Part shown: positions 3,849-40,929 of the stretch, one piece after another
Position numbering within the stretch: the first letter of the stretch is position 1
Layout of the letters: each line of letters opens with the position of its first letter
Assembly: GCA_030648205.1 (NCBI GenBank)
Contig: JAUSIH010000046.1
Location: forward strand, 67,147 to 131,146
Direction of reading: 5' to 3'
Source of the DNA: Dehalococcoidia bacterium
GTDB lineage: Bacteria; Chloroflexota; Dehalococcoidia; JAUSIH01
DNA length: 64,000 nt
Position numbers and translations under genes: made by a program
Notes under the pieces: model-generated
The model's input: the letters and a program-made list of their open reading frames with translations, nothing else
What the model was told of the DNA's origin: nothing
The model's database searches: none

Positions 3849-6071
3849 ATGCGTTATCCGCTGGGACGCGCGGGAAGGCCGTTCCTTGCCGCCCTCGCTA
3901 TCGTCGCGGTCGCCCTCGTCGGGCTGACGCCGCGCTCCGCGAGTGCGCTCCCCGCCGCGCTCATCGCGTTCGTGTCCTCCCGCGACGGCAACAGCGAAAT
4001 CTACGTTGCACGGGCCGATGGCGCGGGAGCGACCCGCCTGACATCCAACCCCGGCTGGGACTGGCAGCCCGCGTGGTCGCCGGACGGCGCGCGCCTCGCG
4101 TTCACCTCCCGCGTGGACGGCAACACCGACATTTACACCGTTCGCGCCTCTGATTTGGGCATGACGCGCCTGACCACGGACTCCGCCGATGACCGTGATC
4201 CCGCGTGGTCGCCGGATGGCAAGCGCATTGTGTTTGTCTCGCGACGCGACGGCAATCCTGAGATATACGTCATGAACACGGACGGCTCGGGGCAGACGCG
4301 CCTGACGAACAACCCTGCCTGGGACTGGAACCCCGTCTGGTCTCCCGACGGCCAGCGCCTCGCTTTTATGTCGTACCGCGACAACAGTTATGAGATTTAC
4401 GTGATGCGAGCGGACGGGACGGGGTTGGCCCGCGTCACGACCAACCCGGGTGGGCACCTTGCGCCGGCGTGGTCGCCGGATGGAGCGCGCATCGCCTACG
4501 TGACGGAGAAAGGGCGAACCGCCAGCCTGTGGGTGGTCAACGTGACCACACTGGAGGCGCGGATGCTGGCGTCGCCGGGGGAGAAGGTCAAGCAGGCGGC
4601 ATGGTCTCCGGACGGGAAGCTCCTGGCGATCACCGCGCTCGAAGGATGTCCCGGGACCGAGTGCTACGATGCCCTGTACCTTGTCAACGACGATGGCTCC
4701 GGTCTCCGGTATCTGAACATGTTTCCCCCTGCCGACGGCGAGCTGGCCTGGTCGCCCGACGGCCTCTGGCTCGCGTACACCACGTCGGGTGGCGCGGCAC
4801 AGGCATACCAGGTCTGGATTCGAGAGATAGGCGGGTCCGGCCAGTCCGTCCCGTTCCTGGACGGAGAGTCACCGGTCTGGCAGCCAGCCGCGGGCGCTCT
4901 GTGGCCGACTCCCACGCCGACTCCGGTCGCGCCAACTCCCACCGCCACGCCGACGCCGACTCCTATGCCCACGCCCGCCGGTGCGACACCTACTCCAACC
5001 GCCACTCCCGGACGCAGGACGGTGGGCCTGACGTACCTGTTCTGGCCCATGTACCGCCGCGACGCTCAGCATACGGCGCGGCACCTGTATTTGGGGCCTC
5101 AGGCCCCCGCGCTCAAGTGGGCCTTCGGCACGTTGAACGTTATCCAGTCCTCGCCAGCCATAGGGCCGGACGGAACCATCTACGTCGGCTCCAACGACAA
5201 CAGGCTCTACGCCCTCAGTCCCGGCGGCGTCCTCAAGTGGAGCTTCCCCACGGGGAACTGGGTATGGTCATCCCCGGCCATCGGGGTTGATGGCACTGTC
5301 TACGTCGGGTCTTTCGACAAAAAGCTCTACGCCGTCGCGTCCAACGGCCTCTTGAGATGGAGCTTCCCCACGGGGGATATCGTGTACTCTTCTCCGGCCA
5401 TCGGCGCGGACGGCACCGTCTACGTAGGGTCGAACGACCACAACCTCTACGCTGTCAACCCGAACGGCTCCCTCAAGTGGAGCTTCGGCACCGGCAGCAT
5501 CATCCACTCATCGCCCGCCATCGGATTCGACGGCGCCATCTACGTCGGCTCTTTCGACAAGAAGCTGTATGCCGTCAATGCGGACGGCTCCCTCAAGTGG
5601 AGCTTTACGACGGGCGGCGCCATCCAGTCGTCTCCCACCATTGGAGAGGGGGGCGCCGTGTACGTGGGGTCCACGGACGGAAATCTCTACGCCATCAACG
5701 CGGACGGCTCCCTAAAGTGGAGTTTTCCGGTCGGCGCCGCTATCCAGTCTTCGCCTGCCATCGGAGCGGACGGCAACATCTACGTGGGGGCGGATGACCG
5801 TAACCTCTACGCGGTCAGCTCGAGCGGTGCGCTCAATTGGAGCCTCTCCGTCGGCAGTATCATCTCCGCGTCCCCCGCCGTTGGAGCGGACGGCACCATC
5901 TACGTCCACTCCATTGACCACAAGCTCTACGCCGTGCGGCCGGACGGCTCTCTCAGATGGGGCTTCACAGCAGGAGCGGGGATTGTAACCGTGTCCTCTC
6001 CGGCGATCGGCGCCGACAACATCCTGTACGTGGGGTCGGGGGACGGAAAGCTCTACGCCATCGGGCCGTAG
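3849..6071 (+). CDS. Secreted multi-propeller protein: TolB-like PD40 repeats, Pro/Thr-rich linker, then about 9 PQQ-like beta-propeller repeats
   Basis: Signal peptide (LAALAIVAVALVGL...ASA). Repeated DGxxxIYV...PAWSPDG units (PD40). Linker PTPTPTPVAPTPTATPTPTPMPTP. Repeated LYAV...G.LKWSF.TG..I.SSPAIG.DGT(I/V)YVGS units (PQQ/BamB-like). AGGGAGGG RBS precedes the ATG. Confidence 0.8.
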   Translation: MRYPLGRAGRPFLAALAIVAVALVGLTPRSASALPAALIAFVSSRDGNSEIYVARADGAGATRLTSNPGWDWQPAWSPDGARLAFTSRVDGNTDIYTVRASDLGMTRLTTDSADDRDPAWSPDGKRIVFVSRRDGNPEIYVMNTDGSGQTRLTNNPAWDWNPVWSPDGQRLAFMSYRDNSYEIYVMRADGTGLARVTTNPGGHLAPAWSPDGARIAYVTEKGRTASLWVVNVTTLEARMLASPGEKVKQAAWSPDGKLLAITALEGCPGTECYDALYLVNDDGSGLRYLNMFPPADGELAWSPDGLWLAYTTSGGAAQAYQVWIREIGGSGQSVPFLDGESPVWQPAAGALWPTPTPTPVAPTPTATPTPTPMPTPAGATPTPTATPGRRTVGLTYLFWPMYRRDAQHTARHLYLGPQAPALKWAFGTLNVIQSSPAIGPDGTIYVGSNDNRLYALSPGGVLKWSFPTGNWVWSSPAIGVDGTVYVGSFDKKLYAVASNGLLRWSFPTGDIVYSSPAIGADGTVYVGSNDHNLYAVNPNGSLKWSFGTGSIIHSSPAIGFDGAIYVGSFDKKLYAVNADGSLKWSFTTGGAIQSSPTIGEGGAVYVGSTDGNLYAINADGSLKWSFPVGAAIQSSPAIGADGNIYVGADDRNLYAVSSSGALNWSLSVGSIISASPAVGADGTIYVHSIDHKLYAVRPDGSLRWGFTAGAGIVTVSSPAIGADNILYVGSGDGKLYAIGP

Positions 6072-15583: not shown

Positions 15584-16231
15584 ATGCTTGCCTTTCTCGG
15601 AGGGACCGGCCCGGAGGGTCTGGGACTGGCCGCCCGCTTTGCGCTCGCCGGCTACGAGGTCGTTATCGGCTCGCGCTCGGAGGAGCGCGCGCGGGAGGCG
15701 GCAGAGAAGGTGCGGAAGCTCGTCCCGAAAGCCAAGGTGCGCGGCGACGGCAACGAGGGGGCGGCCCGCAAGGGCGACATCGTGTTCATCTGTGTCCCCT
15801 TTGAGGGGCATAAGGCCTTGCTGGAGTCCCTGCGCGGTGAGTTGAAGTACAAGCTGGTCATTGACGTGGCTGTGCCGCTCGCTTTCGAGAAGGGCAAGGG
15901 CGCCTGCGCCGTCCCCGTCCCGGAAGGTTCCGCCGCCGAGCAGGCCCAGGCGCTGCTGCCGCGCGCCCGAGTCATAGGCGCGTTCCACAACCTTTCGGCC
16001 AAAGAGCTGCAAGACGTGGGGCATCCCATCCCGTGCGACGTGCTGGTGTGCGGCGACGACGAGGAGTCAAAGAAACAGGTGATGGCGATGGCGCAGCAGA
16101 TGACGGGCATCCGCGCGGTGGACGCCGGACGTCTGTCTAGCGCGCGGTACGTCGAGAACTTGACCGTCATGCTCCTCTCCATCAACCGGATATACAAGGC
16201 CCAGGCGGGCATCAAGATTGTAGGTATCTAA
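15584..16231 (+). CDS. fno: NADPH-dependent F420 reductase (F420H2:NADP+ oxidoreductase)
   Basis: MLAFLGGTGPEGLGLAARFALAGYEVVIGSRS Rossmann motif typical of Fno/NpdG. Start set at ATG 15584 after an AGGAGG RBS. Confidence 0.85.
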   Translation: MLAFLGGTGPEGLGLAARFALAGYEVVIGSRSEERAREAAEKVRKLVPKAKVRGDGNEGAARKGDIVFICVPFEGHKALLESLRGELKYKLVIDVAVPLAFEKGKGACAVPVPEGSAAEQAQALLPRARVIGAFHNLSAKELQDVGHPIPCDVLVCGDDEESKKQVMAMAQQMTGIRAVDAGRLSSARYVENLTVMLLSINRIYKAQAGIKIVGI

Positions 16232-16232
16232 C

Positions 16233-16390
16233 GTCCTGTCCCTGAAGTACGCGTACTGATTCATGCATGAGAAGCTGTTCGAGGAAACGCCCCTGGACAC
16301 TTACCGTCTTTCCGGCGAAAGCCGGAATCCAGCGTTCCCTGGTGCTTCTCTGGATACCGGCGGAAGCCGGTATGACATGGAATAAGGAAC
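16233..16390. repeat. Copy 1 of a roughly 155-bp intergenic structured repeat (two GNRA-capped hairpins); inverted partner at 34121-34280
   Basis: About 90% identical to the reverse complement of 34121-34280. Contains hairpins ttccggc-GAAA-gccggaa and ataccggc-GGAA-gccggtat plus the palindrome tgcatgca. Starts 2 nt after the fno stop. Confidence 0.8.
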
Positions 16391-16432
16391 AGATTGTCGA
16401 AACGGAACGCTAACGCGAAAGGGGACCGCTCT

Positions 16433-17644
16433 ATGACTTTGCCTTTGGACGGCGTTCGCCTCATTGACATGACCAAGAACGGGCCCGGTCTGTACGCCGC
16501 CATGCTCCTCGCGGACATGGGCGCCGACGTCATCAAGGTGGAGGAGGTGGGCGAACCCACGGGGCGCCGCGCCGAGCAGGCCAAGGGCGCCGCCTCTCTG
16601 CAGACCACGATGGGCCGCTGTCCCCGGGACTCGGAGTTCTACGCGCCCAACCGGAACAAGCGCAGCATTTGCCTGAACCTCAAGGACCCGGCGGCGCGGG
16701 ACGTCTTCCTTCGTCTGGCGAAGACCAGCGACGTGGTGCTGGAGGGCTTTCGCCCCGGCGTCACCAAGCGGCTGGGCATCGGCTATGAGGCGCTGAGCCA
16801 GCTCAATCCGCGCATCATCTACTGCGCTCTCACGGGCTATGGCCAGGACGGCCCCTACCGTGACCTGGTGGGCCATGACCTGAACTATATCTCCTTCGGG
16901 GGCGCGCTTGCCATTACGGGCAAGCCGGACGAGGCGCCCACGATGCCGGGCTTTCAGTTGGGCGATTTCGGCGGGGGTGGCCTGCACGCCGTCATTGGCA
17001 TTCTGCTGGCCCTCATGGCGCGGGAGCGCACCGGACGGGGCCAGGTGGTGGACATCGCCATGACGGACGGGGTCATCTCGTTCCTGAGCACGATTGTCTC
17101 CGACTACCTGTGGGGCAAGCGTGTCATGGTGCGTGGTGGAGAGAACCTGAACGGCGGCGCGCCCTTCTACAACGTGTACGAGTGCAAGGACGGCAAGTAC
17201 CTGTCTCTGGGCATCGCCGAGCCGTGGTTCTTCGCCAACCTCTGCCGCGAACTGGGCCACGAGGAGTTTATCCCGCTTCAGCATACAACCGGCGAGCCGC
17301 GGGAGAAGATATTCCAGACCTTCCGCCAGATATTCAAGACAAAGACGCGGGACGAATGGTTCAACCAGCTATCGAAGATTGACACATGCGTGGGCAAGGT
17401 CTACACCATGGACGAGCTTGCGTCCGACCCGCACATACGGCATCGAAAGATGCTAACCGAGTTCCATGACCCCAAGCTGGGCGCTGTCCCACAGGTGGGC
17501 GTCGGCATCAAGCTGTCGGACACGCCGGGCAGCATCCGCAGCATCGCACCCAAGCAGGGCCAGCACACCGAGGAGGTCCTGCGCAGCCTGAAGTACACGC
17601 CCGAGCAAATAGCGGCAATGCGCCAGGGGGGCGCCGTCAAGTAA
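16433..17644 (+). CDS. CoA-transferase family III protein (CaiB/BaiF-like; formyl-CoA transferase / acyl-CoA racemase type)
   Basis: LDGVRLIDMT...GPDVIKVE N-terminal signature; 403 aa from ATG 16433. Confidence 0.85.
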   Translation: MTLPLDGVRLIDMTKNGPGLYAAMLLADMGADVIKVEEVGEPTGRRAEQAKGAASLQTTMGRCPRDSEFYAPNRNKRSICLNLKDPAARDVFLRLAKTSDVVLEGFRPGVTKRLGIGYEALSQLNPRIIYCALTGYGQDGPYRDLVGHDLNYISFGGALAITGKPDEAPTMPGFQLGDFGGGGLHAVIGILLALMARERTGRGQVVDIAMTDGVISFLSTIVSDYLWGKRVMVRGGENLNGGAPFYNVYECKDGKYLSLGIAEPWFFANLCRELGHEEFIPLQHTTGEPREKIFQTFRQIFKTKTRDEWFNQLSKIDTCVGKVYTMDELASDPHIRHRKMLTEFHDPKLGAVPQVGVGIKLSDTPGSIRSIAPKQGQHTEEVLRSLKYTPEQIAAMRQGGAVK

Positions 17645-21286: not shown

Positions 21287-21315
21287 AGCCGCCTCGCGCC
21301 CTCAGGGGACAATAC

Positions 21316-21350
21316 AAAGCCCCTGGCCGTGGCCAGGGGCTTTGCCTTTG
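21316..21350. terminator. Bidirectional intrinsic terminator between convergent genes
   Basis: Perfect 13-bp stem aaagcccctggcc/ggccaggggcttt with a 3-nt loop, A-rich upstream and gcctttg downstream. Sits between the selenoprotein 2 stop (21286) and the permease stop (21363). Confidence 0.55.
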
Positions 21351-25215: not shown

Positions 25216-25249
25216 GGTGCGGACGCTGGCCGCGGCCAGCGTCCGCACC
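25216..25249. promoter_or_regulatory. 34-bp perfect palindrome abutting a TTGACA -35 hexamer in the divergent SBP/cyclase intergenic region (candidate operator)
   Basis: ggtgcggacgctggcc-gc-ggccagcgtccgcacc (16-bp arms) at 25216-25249, immediately followed by TTGACA (25251-25256), 17 nt, TAAGGT. Lies upstream of the cyclase gene (ATG 25326) and divergent from the SBP gene (start 25094). Confidence 0.4.
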
Positions 25250-32234: not shown

Positions 32235-34094
32235 ATGTATGTCATCGGCACCGCCGGACACGTCGACCACGGCAAGTCCACCCTCGTCAAAGCCCTGACC
32301 GGCATTGACCCCGACCGCCTCCGCGAGGAGAAGGAGCGGGAGATGACCATTGACCTGGGCTTCGCCTGGCTGCTTTTGCCGAGCGGGGCCGAGGTCAGCG
32401 TGGTGGACGTGCCCGGCCATGAGCGCTTCGTGAAGAACATGCTGGCGGGCGTCGGAGGCATTGACCTCGCGCTGCTCATCGTCGCCGCCGACGAGGGAGT
32501 CATGCCCCAGACTCGTGAGCATCTGGCTATCCTGGACCTCTTGCGCGTGAAGCGGGGCATCGTGGTCATCACCAAGAAGGACCTGGTGGACCAGGAGTGG
32601 CTGACTCTGGTCATGTCCGACGTGCGGGAGACGCTCAAGGGGACGGCGCTGGAGGATGCGCCCATGTCCGCCGTTTCGTCGGTGACGGGCGAGGGCATCA
32701 AGGAGCTGACTCAGCTTATTGAGACGGAGCTTCAGGCCACGCCCCGTCGGCGCGACACGGGTCGTCCGCGGCTGCCCATTGACCGGGTGTTCAGCGTCGT
32801 GGGCTTCGGCACCGTGGTCACGGGTACGCTCACCGACGGTCGGCTAACCGTGGGCGAGGAGCTGGAGGTCCTCCCCAAGGGGCTGAAGGCGCGCGTCCGC
32901 GGGCTGCAGTCGCATAAGAAGAAGGTGGACGAGCTGCCGCCGGGCACCCGCGCGGCGGTCAACCTGACGGGCGTGGACGCGGACCAGTTGGCGCGCGGCG
33001 ACGTGCTGACCACGCCGGGTTGGCTGCGTCCCACCGAGGCGGCGGACGTGAAGCTGCGCATCCTGCCCAGCGCCCCCATGGCCGTCGGGCACAACGCCTC
33101 GGTCATTCTCTACATTGGCACGTCGGAGGTGCCGGCCCGGGTCCGCCTGCTGGACGCGGATGAGCTGAAGCAGGGCGAGACCTCGTGGGCGCAGGTGCAC
33201 ATGGAGAAGCCCATCGTCGCGGTCAAGGGCGACTACTTCATCATCCGCAACTCGGCGGGCACTCTCGGCGGCGGCGAGATCGTGGACCCGCACGCGCGGC
33301 GCCACCGGCGGCGCCAGCAGAGCCTCCTGGACCGGCTCACCGTGATGGAGCAGGGATCGCCGGAGGAGATAGTGCTGAAAGCGATGGAGGCGGCGGAAGG
33401 CTCCGAGGCCCGCGGCCTGGCAAGCCGCGCGAACATGGCGTGGGCGGACATCCAGGGTGTTCTCCAGACCCTTGCGGAGAGCAAGCGGGCCGTCGCGCTG
33501 GCGGAGCGAGTGAGCCAGAACACGCTGGTCTATTCAGCGCAAGGTTGGAAGTCCCTCCAGGAGAAAGCGCGACAGGTGCTGGAGCAGTACCACAGGCAGT
33601 ACCCGCTGCGCCGGGGCGCGTCCAAGGAGGAGCTGCGCAGCCGTCTGAATGTGACGGCCTCCGCCTTCGTGTCCATCCTGCGGCGCCTCCAGGCCGAGGG
33701 CGCGCTTGTGGAGGAAGGCGCCACCGTACATTTGCCCGCGCACCATGTCCGGCTCGCGCCGGAGCAGCAGGCCGCCGCCGACCGCTATCTGCGCGCCCTG
33801 ATCGAGAAGCCGTACTCGCCCTTCGGCGACGCGGCGATTGACCAGGACCTCTTGAGCGTGCTCATTGACCAGCGGAAGGTCGTCCGGTGCAGCGAGGACG
33901 TGGTGTTCGCCGCCGCGGCCTACGACGACATGGCGCGCCAGGTGGTGGAGCGCATCAAGCAGCAGGGCAAGGTCACGGTGGGCGAGATGCGGGACATGTT
34001 CAGCACGAGCCGCAAGTATGCGCTGGCGCTGGCCGAGTATCTGGACCAGCAGCACGTCACGCGCAGGGTGGGGGATGAGCGCGTCCTGCGGTAA
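32235..34094 (+). CDS. selB: Selenocysteine-specific translation elongation factor SelB
   Basis: MYVIGTAGHVDHGKSTLVKALTG G-domain, EF-Tu-like domains II/III, and a C-terminal winged-helix extension (...KYALALAEYLDQQHVTRRVGDERVLR); 620 aa from ATG 32235. Confidence 0.9.
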   Translation: MYVIGTAGHVDHGKSTLVKALTGIDPDRLREEKEREMTIDLGFAWLLLPSGAEVSVVDVPGHERFVKNMLAGVGGIDLALLIVAADEGVMPQTREHLAILDLLRVKRGIVVITKKDLVDQEWLTLVMSDVRETLKGTALEDAPMSAVSSVTGEGIKELTQLIETELQATPRRRDTGRPRLPIDRVFSVVGFGTVVTGTLTDGRLTVGEELEVLPKGLKARVRGLQSHKKKVDELPPGTRAAVNLTGVDADQLARGDVLTTPGWLRPTEAADVKLRILPSAPMAVGHNASVILYIGTSEVPARVRLLDADELKQGETSWAQVHMEKPIVAVKGDYFIIRNSAGTLGGGEIVDPHARRHRRRQQSLLDRLTVMEQGSPEEIVLKAMEAAEGSEARGLASRANMAWADIQGVLQTLAESKRAVALAERVSQNTLVYSAQGWKSLQEKARQVLEQYHRQYPLRRGASKEELRSRLNVTASAFVSILRRLQAEGALVEEGATVHLPAHHVRLAPEQQAAADRYLRALIEKPYSPFGDAAIDQDLLSVLIDQRKVVRCSEDVVFAAAAYDDMARQVVERIKQQGKVTVGEMRDMFSTSRKYALALAEYLDQQHVTRRVGDERVLR

Positions 34095-34120
34095 TCGCTA
34101 ATGTCCTGTTTTGGAAACAC

Positions 34121-34280
34121 GTTCCCTAGTCCATGTCATACCGGCGGAAGCCGGTATCCAGAGAAGCACCGGGGAACGCTGGATTCCGGCTTTCGCCGGA
34201 AAGACGGTAAGTGACCAGGGGCGTTTCCTTGAACAATTTCTCATGCATGAAACAGTATGCGTACTTCGGGGACAGGACAC
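34121..34280. repeat. Copy 2 (inverted) of the roughly 155-bp structured repeat; partner at 16233-16390
   Basis: Reverse complement aligns with copy 1 at about 90% identity. Fills the convergent gap between the selB stop (34094) and the pyrE stop (34280). Confidence 0.8.
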
Positions 34281-34969
34281 TAGGCCGGGGAGTCGCCGGG
34301 CCGCTTCTCGGCGGCGGCCTCCGCCCTGTGGGTCTCCATGTAGTCCAGGCTTTGCCGGTACTGTTCCTCGGTTATAAGCCCTTCGGCCATGTAGAAGTTG
34401 AGCATGACCTTGAGGCTGAGGAGCCGCAGGACGCCGTACCCGTGGAGCTTCAAACGCTCGATGCCCCCCTGGTCGCGGTCCACCAGCACGACGGCGTTGC
34501 GGACCCGCAGGCCGGCGGCCTCCAGGGTGCGGGTGGTCTCCAGAAGGCTTCCGCCGGTGGTCATCAGGTCGTCCACCACCAGGACGCGCTGGCCCTGCTG
34601 GAACAGCCCCTCGATGCGTGGCGCGCCGTTCTTCTGGTGGTCCGGACGGACGTACATCATAGGGACCTGCGCGTGAAGGGACAAGGCCGTGGCCAGGTGC
34701 AGCCCGCCGACGGGGACGCCGGCGACAAGCTGAAAATCAGCGCACTCAGGGCGCGCCATGAGCTGCTTGGCTCTGATGTCCTCCAGCATGATGCGGGCGA
34801 CTCGTCGGAGGACGTTTGGCTTGCTGATGAGCACACGGGGGTTGATATACACGGGCGAGTGGCGGGTCGTCCGGCCCAGGGTGAAGTCGCCGAACTGCAC
34901 GCCGCCAAGGTCGAAGAGCTCTTTGGCGATCCACAAGTTACCTGGGGGGAGAGACTTAGGAGAGGACAT
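34280..34969 (-). CDS. pyrE: Orotate phosphoribosyltransferase
   Basis: PRPP-binding motif VLVVDDLMTTGGS; 229 aa. Confidence 0.9.
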   Translation of the reverse strand: MSSPKSLPPGNLWIAKELFDLGGVQFGDFTLGRTTRHSPVYINPRVLISKPNVLRRVARIMLEDIRAKQLMARPECADFQLVAGVPVGGLHLATALSLHAQVPMMYVRPDHQKNGAPRIEGLFQQGQRVLVVDDLMTTGGSLLETTRTLEAAGLRVRNAVVLVDRDQGGIERLKLHGYGVLRLLSLKVMLNFYMAEGLITEEQYRQSLDYMETHRAEAAAEKRPGDSPA

Positions 34970-40787: not shown

Positions 40788-40837
40788 GGCTGTATCTGCG
40801 GATGCTCTAGAACCCGTTCCAAAATTCGGCTTCAGGG

Positions 40838-40885
40838 TTCGACAAGCTCACCATGAACGGAAGAACCACCGCTGAGCTTGTCGAA
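40838..40885. promoter_or_regulatory. 13-bp perfect inverted repeat (TTCGACAAGCTCA...TGAGCTTGTCGAA) with a 22-nt loop between the PHP gene and the ATPase gene
   Basis: Located in the 142-bp gap between two co-directional minus-strand genes. Terminator or regulatory hairpin candidate. Confidence 0.3.
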
Positions 40886-40929
40886 GGGTGAACAGGCATT
40901 TTGAAAGGACTTCTAGCGCTCTTTTTGCA

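Follow-up and report, generated by a model that had tools for sequence, protein, structure and literature searches.

The inverted pair of intergenic repeats found in this DNA (a stretch of 64,000 nt, here called the window) is best explained as two insertions of a 179-bp MITE-like mobile element that carries, nested within it, a dimer of CGTC-1 REP units. We estimate the probability of this reading at about 75%. The REP portion of the repeat was already known; the 179-bp shell that surrounds it is new and apparently represents a small family of groundwater Dehalococcoidia. The two repeats are referred to as copies A and B, and sequences outside the window are given by their L numbers. The features of both copies are listed in Table 1.

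A repeat search of the 64-kb window identified the pair as 16228-16415 and 34096-34283, 188 nt in length with 86% complementarity. This was the longest inverted pair in the window and, among the long pairs, the one with the highest similarity. The original prediction for this DNA, made from the sequence, was of an inverted pair about 90% identical, and such a pair is real: with the loop masked, copies A and B were 88% identical over 175 comparable columns and 91% identical over the 158-nt core that had been predicted. The ends were set here from empty sites in relatives, and the element defined in that way is slightly wider than the limits proposed for the two copies (16233-16390 and 34121-34280). 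Copy A is located between the genes for F420-dependent NADP reductase (fno) and a family III CoA-transferase, which are on the same strand; copy B is located between the converging 3′ ends of selB and a gene for a pyrE-like phosphoribosyltransferase. Copy A had been thought to fill its intergenic gap exactly, but a native 19-nt spacer that includes the ribosome-binding region precedes the ATG of the CoA-transferase gene. Similarly, the palindrome given as tgcatgca is actually TCATGCATGA (16261-16270), and it was not conserved in other members of the family. Close relatives came from groundwater metagenomes, including those of the Hainich wells. Short-read contigs of SRR13727527 break off inside both copies, as expected of a repeat, which supports the presence of multiple copies in the source sample.

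Several other identities for the pair were considered and rejected: chance similarity, because a pair of 188 nt with 86% complementarity far exceeds what chance would give; a CRISPR repeat, because the units are solitary and form no array; an integron attC site, because the motifs do not match; and an intrinsic terminator, because the T tract is absent.

Table 1. Positions of the features of copies A and B in the window
Feature	Position	Strand	Remarks
Copy A, putative 179-bp MITE-like element	16232-16410	+	Not at the orthologous junction of L154, L155, L157
Left target-site repeat of copy A, TAA	16229-16231	+	Is the fno stop codon
Left terminal inverted repeat of copy A, CGTCCTGT	16232-16239	+	Pairs with 16402-16409 at 6/8 positions
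REP unit 1 of copy A	16305-16331	+	Head CGTC (16305-16308), stem TTTCCGGC/GCCGGAAT, loop GAAA, tail CCA
Dimer spacer of copy A, 19 nt	16332-16350	+	Differs by one base from that of copy B
REP unit 2 of copy A	16351-16377	-	Head TGTC (GACA at 16374-16377, +), stem ATACCGGC/GCCGGTAT, tail CCA
Right terminal inverted repeat of copy A, ACGGAACG	16402-16409	+	
Right target-site repeat of copy A, TAA	16411-16413	+	Next come the native spacer of 19 nt and, at 16433, the ATG of the CoA-transferase gene
Copy B, putative 179-bp element of the same kind	34101-34279	-	Canonical loop state; not at the orthologous junction of L152
Left target-site repeat of copy B, TAG	34280-34282	-	Is the stop codon of the pyrE-like gene
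CGTC-1 REP head-to-head dimer of copy B	34134-34206	-	Unit 1 34180-34206, spacer 34161-34179, unit 2 34134-34160, loop TTCC
Right target-site repeat of copy B, TAG	34098-34100	-	Followed by CGA and the selB stop codon (34092-34094, +)
40-aa ORF, MHEKLF...RYDMD/E, probably spurious	16263-16385 and 34126-34248		Copies A and B, respectively

Comparison with relatives that have the same gene junctions demonstrated that both copies are insertions. At the fno–CoA-transferase junction, the window has the sequence ATC TAA (179 nt) TAA CGCGAAAGG...ATG, whereas L154 and L155, in which Fno is 87% identical, have an empty site with a single triplet, ATC TAG CGCGAAAGG...ATG. The fno junction of L157 (Fno 72% identical) is likewise empty. 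At the pyrE-selB junction, the window has ...GCC TAG (179 nt) TAG CGATTACC, and the empty site in L152, whose pyrE-like protein is 86% identical, is ...GCC TGA CGATTACC. Target-site duplications, which the original prediction had suggested looking for, were therefore present at both sites, as TAA/TAA and TAG/TAG in the window and as one triplet in L154, L155 and L152.

A metagenome scan with a 20-mer spanning an arm and the first hairpin yielded three full-length relatives, arms included (L147, L148 and L149). These lie beside unrelated genes and are 83–89% identical to the window copies; L147 and L149 are one locus in two strains and are 95.4% identical to each other. In all five sequences (copies A and B and these three) the similarity begins and ends at identical bases. 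One more copy of the family was seen as the ORF P0241. Two copies were seen directly in this genome, both within the 64-kb window, and about six distinct copies in all the public data searched. There was no match to an element-specific 33-mer in a genome-contig collection, which does not have the source genome among its genomes, and no match to the element in the plasmid collection by distant blastn. The arms of the element had no match among about 145 loci from other phyla, and we conclude that they are lineage-specific. Literature searches with the peptides PAKAGIQ and PAFAGMT and the DNA motif GGAATCCAG gave only unrelated papers.

These results leave next to no weight for the view that the pair is the footprint of a local segmental duplication or a chance similarity. 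The presence of only two copies in the 64-kb window would agree with that view, and a local duplication was the outcome that the original prediction named as pointing away from a dispersed element. Relatives with the same sharp ends occur in other organisms and at unrelated loci, however, and both window sites are empty in orthologs; together these exclude a local duplication.

The triplets flanking the element are intact direct repeats in copy A (TAA/TAA), copy B (TAG/TAG) and L149 (TAG/TAG), and decayed ones in L147 (TAG/TGG) and L148 (TAG/GAG). The inverted ends, YGTCCTGT...ACAGGACR, are short (8 nt) and are paired at all eight positions in copy B and at six of eight in copy A. The length of the duplication is ambiguous, since 2, 3 and 4 bp all fit. 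If it is read as 4 bp, the target becomes YTAR (CTAA/CTAA for copy A and CTAG/TTAG for copy B), and the inverted ends are then exactly symmetrical. YTAR is the documented target of IS5 (PMC5009759). In eukaryotes, the IS5 relative Harbinger typically makes a duplication of three bases (PMC12730594), and a 2-bp TA duplication of the IS630 type may also fit the target pattern. Because the size could be anywhere from 2 to 4 bp, the duplication does not permit assignment of a transposase family.

At each of the four independent loci, an upstream gene with Pfam-supported domains (F420_oxidored; Pribosyltran; FAD_binding_2 with Succ_DH_flav_C; and MFS_1) reads into the element, and its stop codon is the left repeat. 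A rough count over the window, which has 65% G+C, gave about 873 TAR sites on both strands, of which about 40 were at predicted stops and about 163 in non-coding DNA. Finding four of four insertions at stop codons is unlikely by chance even among insertion-tolerant sites (a chance of roughly 0.2⁴). Duplication of the target leaves the upstream gene with its stop codon intact, which makes a stop codon look like a low-cost landing site; this could reflect either targeting or selection after insertion. The loci offer a clear-cut case in nature of a mobile element hitting stop codons and regenerating them, a cheap niche in compact, G+C-rich genomes. The orientation of the element relative to the upstream gene was also the same in all four loci (p ~0.125), a regularity that the mobile-element model leaves unexplained. 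Outside the window, about 2.8 kb past its end, the short-read contig L159 breaks off at its 3′ end, a single base past the TAG that terminates a short-chain dehydrogenase gene; another repeat may have inserted at a stop codon there.

The two hairpins of the repeat, TTCCGGC-GAAA-GCCGGAA and ATACCGGC-GGAA-GCCGGTAT, are present as predicted, and the hairpin motif had four matches in the window compared with 0.08 expected from shuffles. Judged by their sequence, these hairpins match the CGTC-1 REP family already described, set head to head as a dimer, and are not a new RNA. The paper of Di Nocera, De Gregorio and Rocco (2013, BMC Genomics 14:522; PMC3733652) defines a CGTC-1 unit as an unpaired CGTC or TGTC head (CCTC allowed), an 8-bp stem starting with AT, a 4-nt loop and a CCA tail. 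It also describes the units as occurring mostly in head-to-head (HH) dimers with the heads outside, and places Neisseria dRS3 and Rickettsia RPE-6 in the family. In both window copies the heads, CGTC and TGTC, are at the outer ends of a 73-nt dimer in the HH arrangement. The tail CCA comes after unit 1, and TGG stands ahead of unit 2 on the + strand. The stem of unit 2, ATACCGGC/GCCGGTAT, has the full 8-bp CGTC-1 definition, including the starting A-T residues. That of unit 1, TTTCCGGC/GCCGGAAT, has a T-T mismatch at the first position and 7 bp paired, where other loci have ATTCCGGC. The stems of the two units differ at one base pair (T-A versus A-T). Both halves of the phrase REP/MITE-like element, an option offered by the original prediction, therefore hold: the hairpins fit CGTC-1 REPs, and the whole unit, bounded by inverted ends and a target duplication, is missing from the orthologous sites of relatives and recurs in other contexts.

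Two other kinds of repeated or palindromic sequence were observed in the window. The strongest hairpins after the REP units are two perfect long palindromes, at 21315-21344 and 25216-25249, with stems of 13 and 15 bp and loops of cgtg and cgcg, respectively. At 5112-6062 there are 7–8 tandem copies of a 120-nt unit, 64–75% identical and apparently within a coding region; they look like the repeats of a beta-propeller-type protein.

The REP dimer is much more widespread than the element. The 23-mer of hairpin 1 was found in 23 viral contigs, where GTCA always stood just before it and the flanks were otherwise unrelated. A two-hairpin pattern scan, using one genome per species, found the same dimer at a minimum of 120 loci in many phyla. 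The matches listed came from Alpha-, Beta-, Gamma- and Deltaproteobacteria, Nitrospirota, Chloroflexota, Elusimicrobiota, Planctomycetota, Verrucomicrobiota, Binatia and Melainabacteria. Among them, the common form of unit 1 is (C)GTC-ATTCCGGC-GNNN-GCCGGAAT-CCAG, which is followed by a variable spacer of 8–35 nt and then by unit 2, commonly CTGG-ATACCGGC-NNNC-GCCGGTAT-GAC(G). The halves lying outside the search pattern were complementary in 72 of 120 listed matches for unit 1 and in 80 of 120 for unit 2.

A 4-nt loop flip between the copies, another feature of the original prediction, is real: at 16354-16373 and again at 34138-34157 the + strand reads ATACCGGCGGAAGCCGGTAT. Once the copies are turned the same way, the loop of unit 2 is GGAA in copy A and TTCC in copy B. 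The accompanying statement that both hairpins of each copy are capped by GNRA loops was correct for copy A; in copy B, read on the element's own strand, such a loop caps hairpin 1 only. Among the matches listed are 61 canonical dimers from elsewhere, in which G is the initial base of the first loop in 59 and C the final base of the second loop in 56. Because loop polarity is fixed in this manner, one strand of a canonical dimer normally shows GNRA followed by its complement; the TTCC of copy B is accordingly the normal state, and the GGAA of copy A is a rare, derived loop inversion. The "GNRA" loop is the ordinary loop of each REP unit as read from its own CGTC head. A single one of the 61 canonical dimers listed, at 6156-6190 of L052, has a flipped second loop (GCAG/GCAG), so that inversion also occurs outside this family.

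The orthologs L147 (GGAA) and L149 (TTCC) also differ in loop state. Together with the difference between copies A and B, this means that the loop was inverted independently at least twice. Template switching within a hairpin is a documented way for loops to be inverted (PMC8794818), and we infer that such switching, during replication, is the most likely cause of the flips described here. Fold predictions gave −8.3 to −8.9 kcal/mol for single REP hairpins as single-stranded DNA. The dimer of copy B was predicted to form one long hairpin as single-stranded DNA (−21.9 kcal/mol) and the long form as RNA (−38.9 kcal/mol); that of copy A was predicted to form two separate hairpins as single-stranded DNA (−19.1 kcal/mol) and a long form with an internal loop as RNA (−34.4 kcal/mol).

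The interior of the element varied in two further ways. L148 and L149 contain a 24-nt nested hairpin, AGCTTGCCCCGTACCCGATACGGG, inside the GAAA loop of unit 1, and L147 is precisely without it. Since L147 and L149 are orthologous, this implies that a small hairpin module was gained or lost precisely. Together with the recurrent loop inversion, it provides small, datable examples of template-switch-type change in DNA palindromes. In a strain whose pyrE-like protein is 97% identical, an element (L150 1871-2040 and L151 2434-2603) occupies the same pyrE-selB site with the same TAG repeats. Its ends, TAG CGTGGTGTCCCCGAAGT ... GTATTTCCAAAACAGAACAT TAG, are homologous to those of copy B, and its interior differs: it is a GTCATTGCGA-type dimer in which the loops of the units contain nested hairpins.

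The GNRA-capped hairpins had been taken as a sign of structure at the RNA level. A functional structured RNA could be a 3′-UTR stabilizer, an attenuator or a small RNA that is co-transcribed with the upstream gene, and some observations suit such a role: the element lies directly after a gene reading into it, in one orientation, in four of four loci; its fold clearly outdoes those of shuffled controls, with z scores of −2.6 (copy A) and −6.9 (copy B); and REPs of other bacteria are known to affect mRNA stability (background in Di Nocera et al., PMC3733652). The remaining results argue otherwise. The Rfam scan that the original prediction proposed gave no relevant match to the repeat: at gathering thresholds the whole window contained one tRNA only, and at E-values up to 10 the best scores for the two copies were 13.7 bits versus 50 for CC3552 and 21.9 versus 95 for mir-3130. 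Only one of 63 consensus pairs was compensatory and the covariation term was unfavorable (+1.72), although five sequences give this test little power. No promoter-like or terminator-like site was found by scans in or next to both copies. The upstream genes are mutually unrelated, the element is present or absent among close relatives, L150 and L151 keep the ends with the interior replaced, and the canonical dimers do not keep GNRA loops on one strand. DNA mini-hairpins of the d(GCGAAAGC) type are unusually stable, and GNRA-type loops alone are therefore no argument for RNA. We conclude that the step from GNRA-capped hairpins to an RNA-level structure fails, and we consider an RNA role for the element improbable.

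An even less probable alternative is that the element encodes a small protein of 40–48 aa. None of the five copies interrupts the frame in question, which also survives the 24-nt insertion in L148 and L149; the ORF measures 43–51 aa in L147-L149. At 65% G+C, however, long open frames are expected by chance, and the changes between copies A and B are about three synonymous to four non-synonymous, in addition to the loop flip, which alters two residues. There is no apparent Shine-Dalgarno-like sequence upstream, Pfam gave no match, and the peptide is the usual translation of the REP palindrome (P0243, P0244, P0250). A search of a representative protein library with the 40-aa frame gave only 11 matches, of which two truly belong to the family, both as clusters of one sequence; a library of representatives is unable to give a copy number. 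The 60-aa frame of copy B had no candidate in the protein database. The 40-aa ORF is probably spurious.

We return to the mobile-element reading and to the shell itself. In the 179-bp element the shell is asymmetric, with 73 nt to the left of the REP heads and 33 nt to the right. Elsewhere an identical CGTC-1 dimer was found in other, lineage-specific shells that have inverted ends of 14–18 bp, some of them with TA-containing flanks. These include shells in Planctomycetes (L071 and L119; 18-bp inverted ends, CAGGACTGCTGCAAAGTC), Binatia (L055, L069 and L076; 15-bp inverted ends), Desulfobacterales (L026, L033, L101 and L145) and Syntrophobacteraceae (L031, L093 and L143), a further deltaproteobacterial group with TA-containing flanks, and the loci L103 and L128. 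Inverted similarity from flank to flank around the dimers exceeded the 99th percentile of controls in 16 of 119 cases, in a test that is insensitive to ends of 8 nt. A few REP dimers in longer palindromes are mentioned, and not pursued, by Di Nocera et al. 2013 (PMC3733652). It is possible, though in our judgment doubtful, that CGTC-type REP dimers travel as exchangeable cargo in inverted-repeat shells or home to palindrome centers. Besides the shells of other lineages, the pyrE-selB site speaks for this, since one shell there contains two different REP dimers in strains with a 97% identical flanking protein. If so, and if the shells are recognized by transposases, this would supply a mobilization route for the CGTC REP superfamily, which is without a dedicated transposase, and would explain the identical 27-nt units in unrelated phyla.

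A second palindromic element of about 110 bp was observed in the window between two genes (40807-40916). It has CTAG at both ends, contains at its center a different widespread palindrome, GGTTCGACAAGCTCA ... TGAGCTTGTCGAAGGG, and also occurs in L001. In L153, a relative with 76% identity, just 34 nt separate these genes (PHP and ABC_tran); this suggests that the element too may be a MITE-like insertion.

The REP dimer also raises the alternative that the repeat is a REPIN-like element, moved as single-stranded DNA by an HUH/Y1 (RAYT-like) transposase that recognizes the REP hairpins, with TAR as the recognition or cleavage motif. Like a REPIN, the repeat has an inverted REP doublet at its core; the polarity of each loop is fixed relative to its own head, as expected of strand-specific recognition of DNA hairpins; and the single hairpins are predicted to be stable as single-stranded DNA, at the energies given above. 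On the other side, CGTC REPs are without an associated tyrosine transposase according to Di Nocera et al. (PMC3733652), and clustering of about 3,600 ORFs from 120 dimer loci among the matches listed revealed no recurrent transposase-like ORF. The recurrent clusters were histidine kinases, GGDEF/EAL proteins, ABC transporters and hydrolases. Moreover, the boundaries of mobility are at the inverted ends, 73 nt and 33 nt outside the REP heads, and the flanking triplet depends on the site (TAA/TAA versus TAG/TAG), like a true duplication. We consider REPIN-like movement unlikely, although it is somewhat less so than an RNA role.

For the MITE-like reading, we propose the following mechanism. A non-autonomous 179-bp element of a groundwater Dehalococcoidia lineage, with the short imperfect inverted ends 5′-YGTCCTGT ... 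ACAGGACR-3′ and a head-to-head dimer of CGTC-1 REP units in its middle, would insert at TAR sites (also readable as YTAR) and duplicate the target. In a genome of 65% G+C, the TAR sites that can be hit without damage would largely be stop codons; the upstream gene would keep its stop, and the second copy of the triplet would end up at the far end of the element. The second loop of copy A would have been inverted after the copies diverged, weakening the pairing between its two REP units. Mobilization would presumably occur in trans, by a DDE transposase of the IS5/PIF-Harbinger or IS630 type, a class that we name tentatively and at well below even odds. No transposase or autonomous element bearing such ends was found, with 64 kb of this genome available. 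The element might in addition affect the upstream mRNA. For annotation, the implication is that intergenic repeats with REP hairpins in uncultured Chloroflexota, which break short-read assemblies, should be masked as mobile DNA and not called as small ORFs or RNAs.

The element can be compared with four known systems. It resembles MITEs of the IS5/PIF-Harbinger (Tourist-like) or IS630/Tc1-mariner (Correia-like) groups in being small, in having terminal inverted repeats and no credible gene, in its TA-centered target duplication of 2–4 bp and in its presence or absence between relatives. It differs from them in having ends of only 8 nt and no known parent IS, in lying on stop codons in four of four known insertions, and in having as its interior a REP dimer that differs between strains at one site. 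REPINs and their RAYTs (Bertels and Rainey 2011) share with it the inverted REP doublet that folds as two hairpins or one long one. The heads here are CGTC/TGTC and not GTAG, however, the mobile boundaries are outside the doublet, and no RAYT is known or was found.

The element is also close to the CGTC-1 REPs as described by Di Nocera et al. (PMC3733652). The head, 4-nt loop and CCA tail are the same, the HH dimer has slightly different stems (a heterodimer), and the dimers lie downstream of genes, between co-directional or convergent ones, with no transposase known nearby. Two differences are that unit 1 has T and not A at the first stem position, and that the dimer is nested in a 179-bp repeated unit with its own ends and target duplication. 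The same paper describes CGTC-1 of H. neapolitanus, in a 41-bp palindrome, and GTAG-15 of A. variabilis, in which the dimer is likewise centered in a longer, lineage-specific repeated palindrome. Relative to these, the shell described here is longer and asymmetric (73 nt left, 33 nt right), and it has demonstrable empty sites, a TAR duplication and insertion at stop codons.
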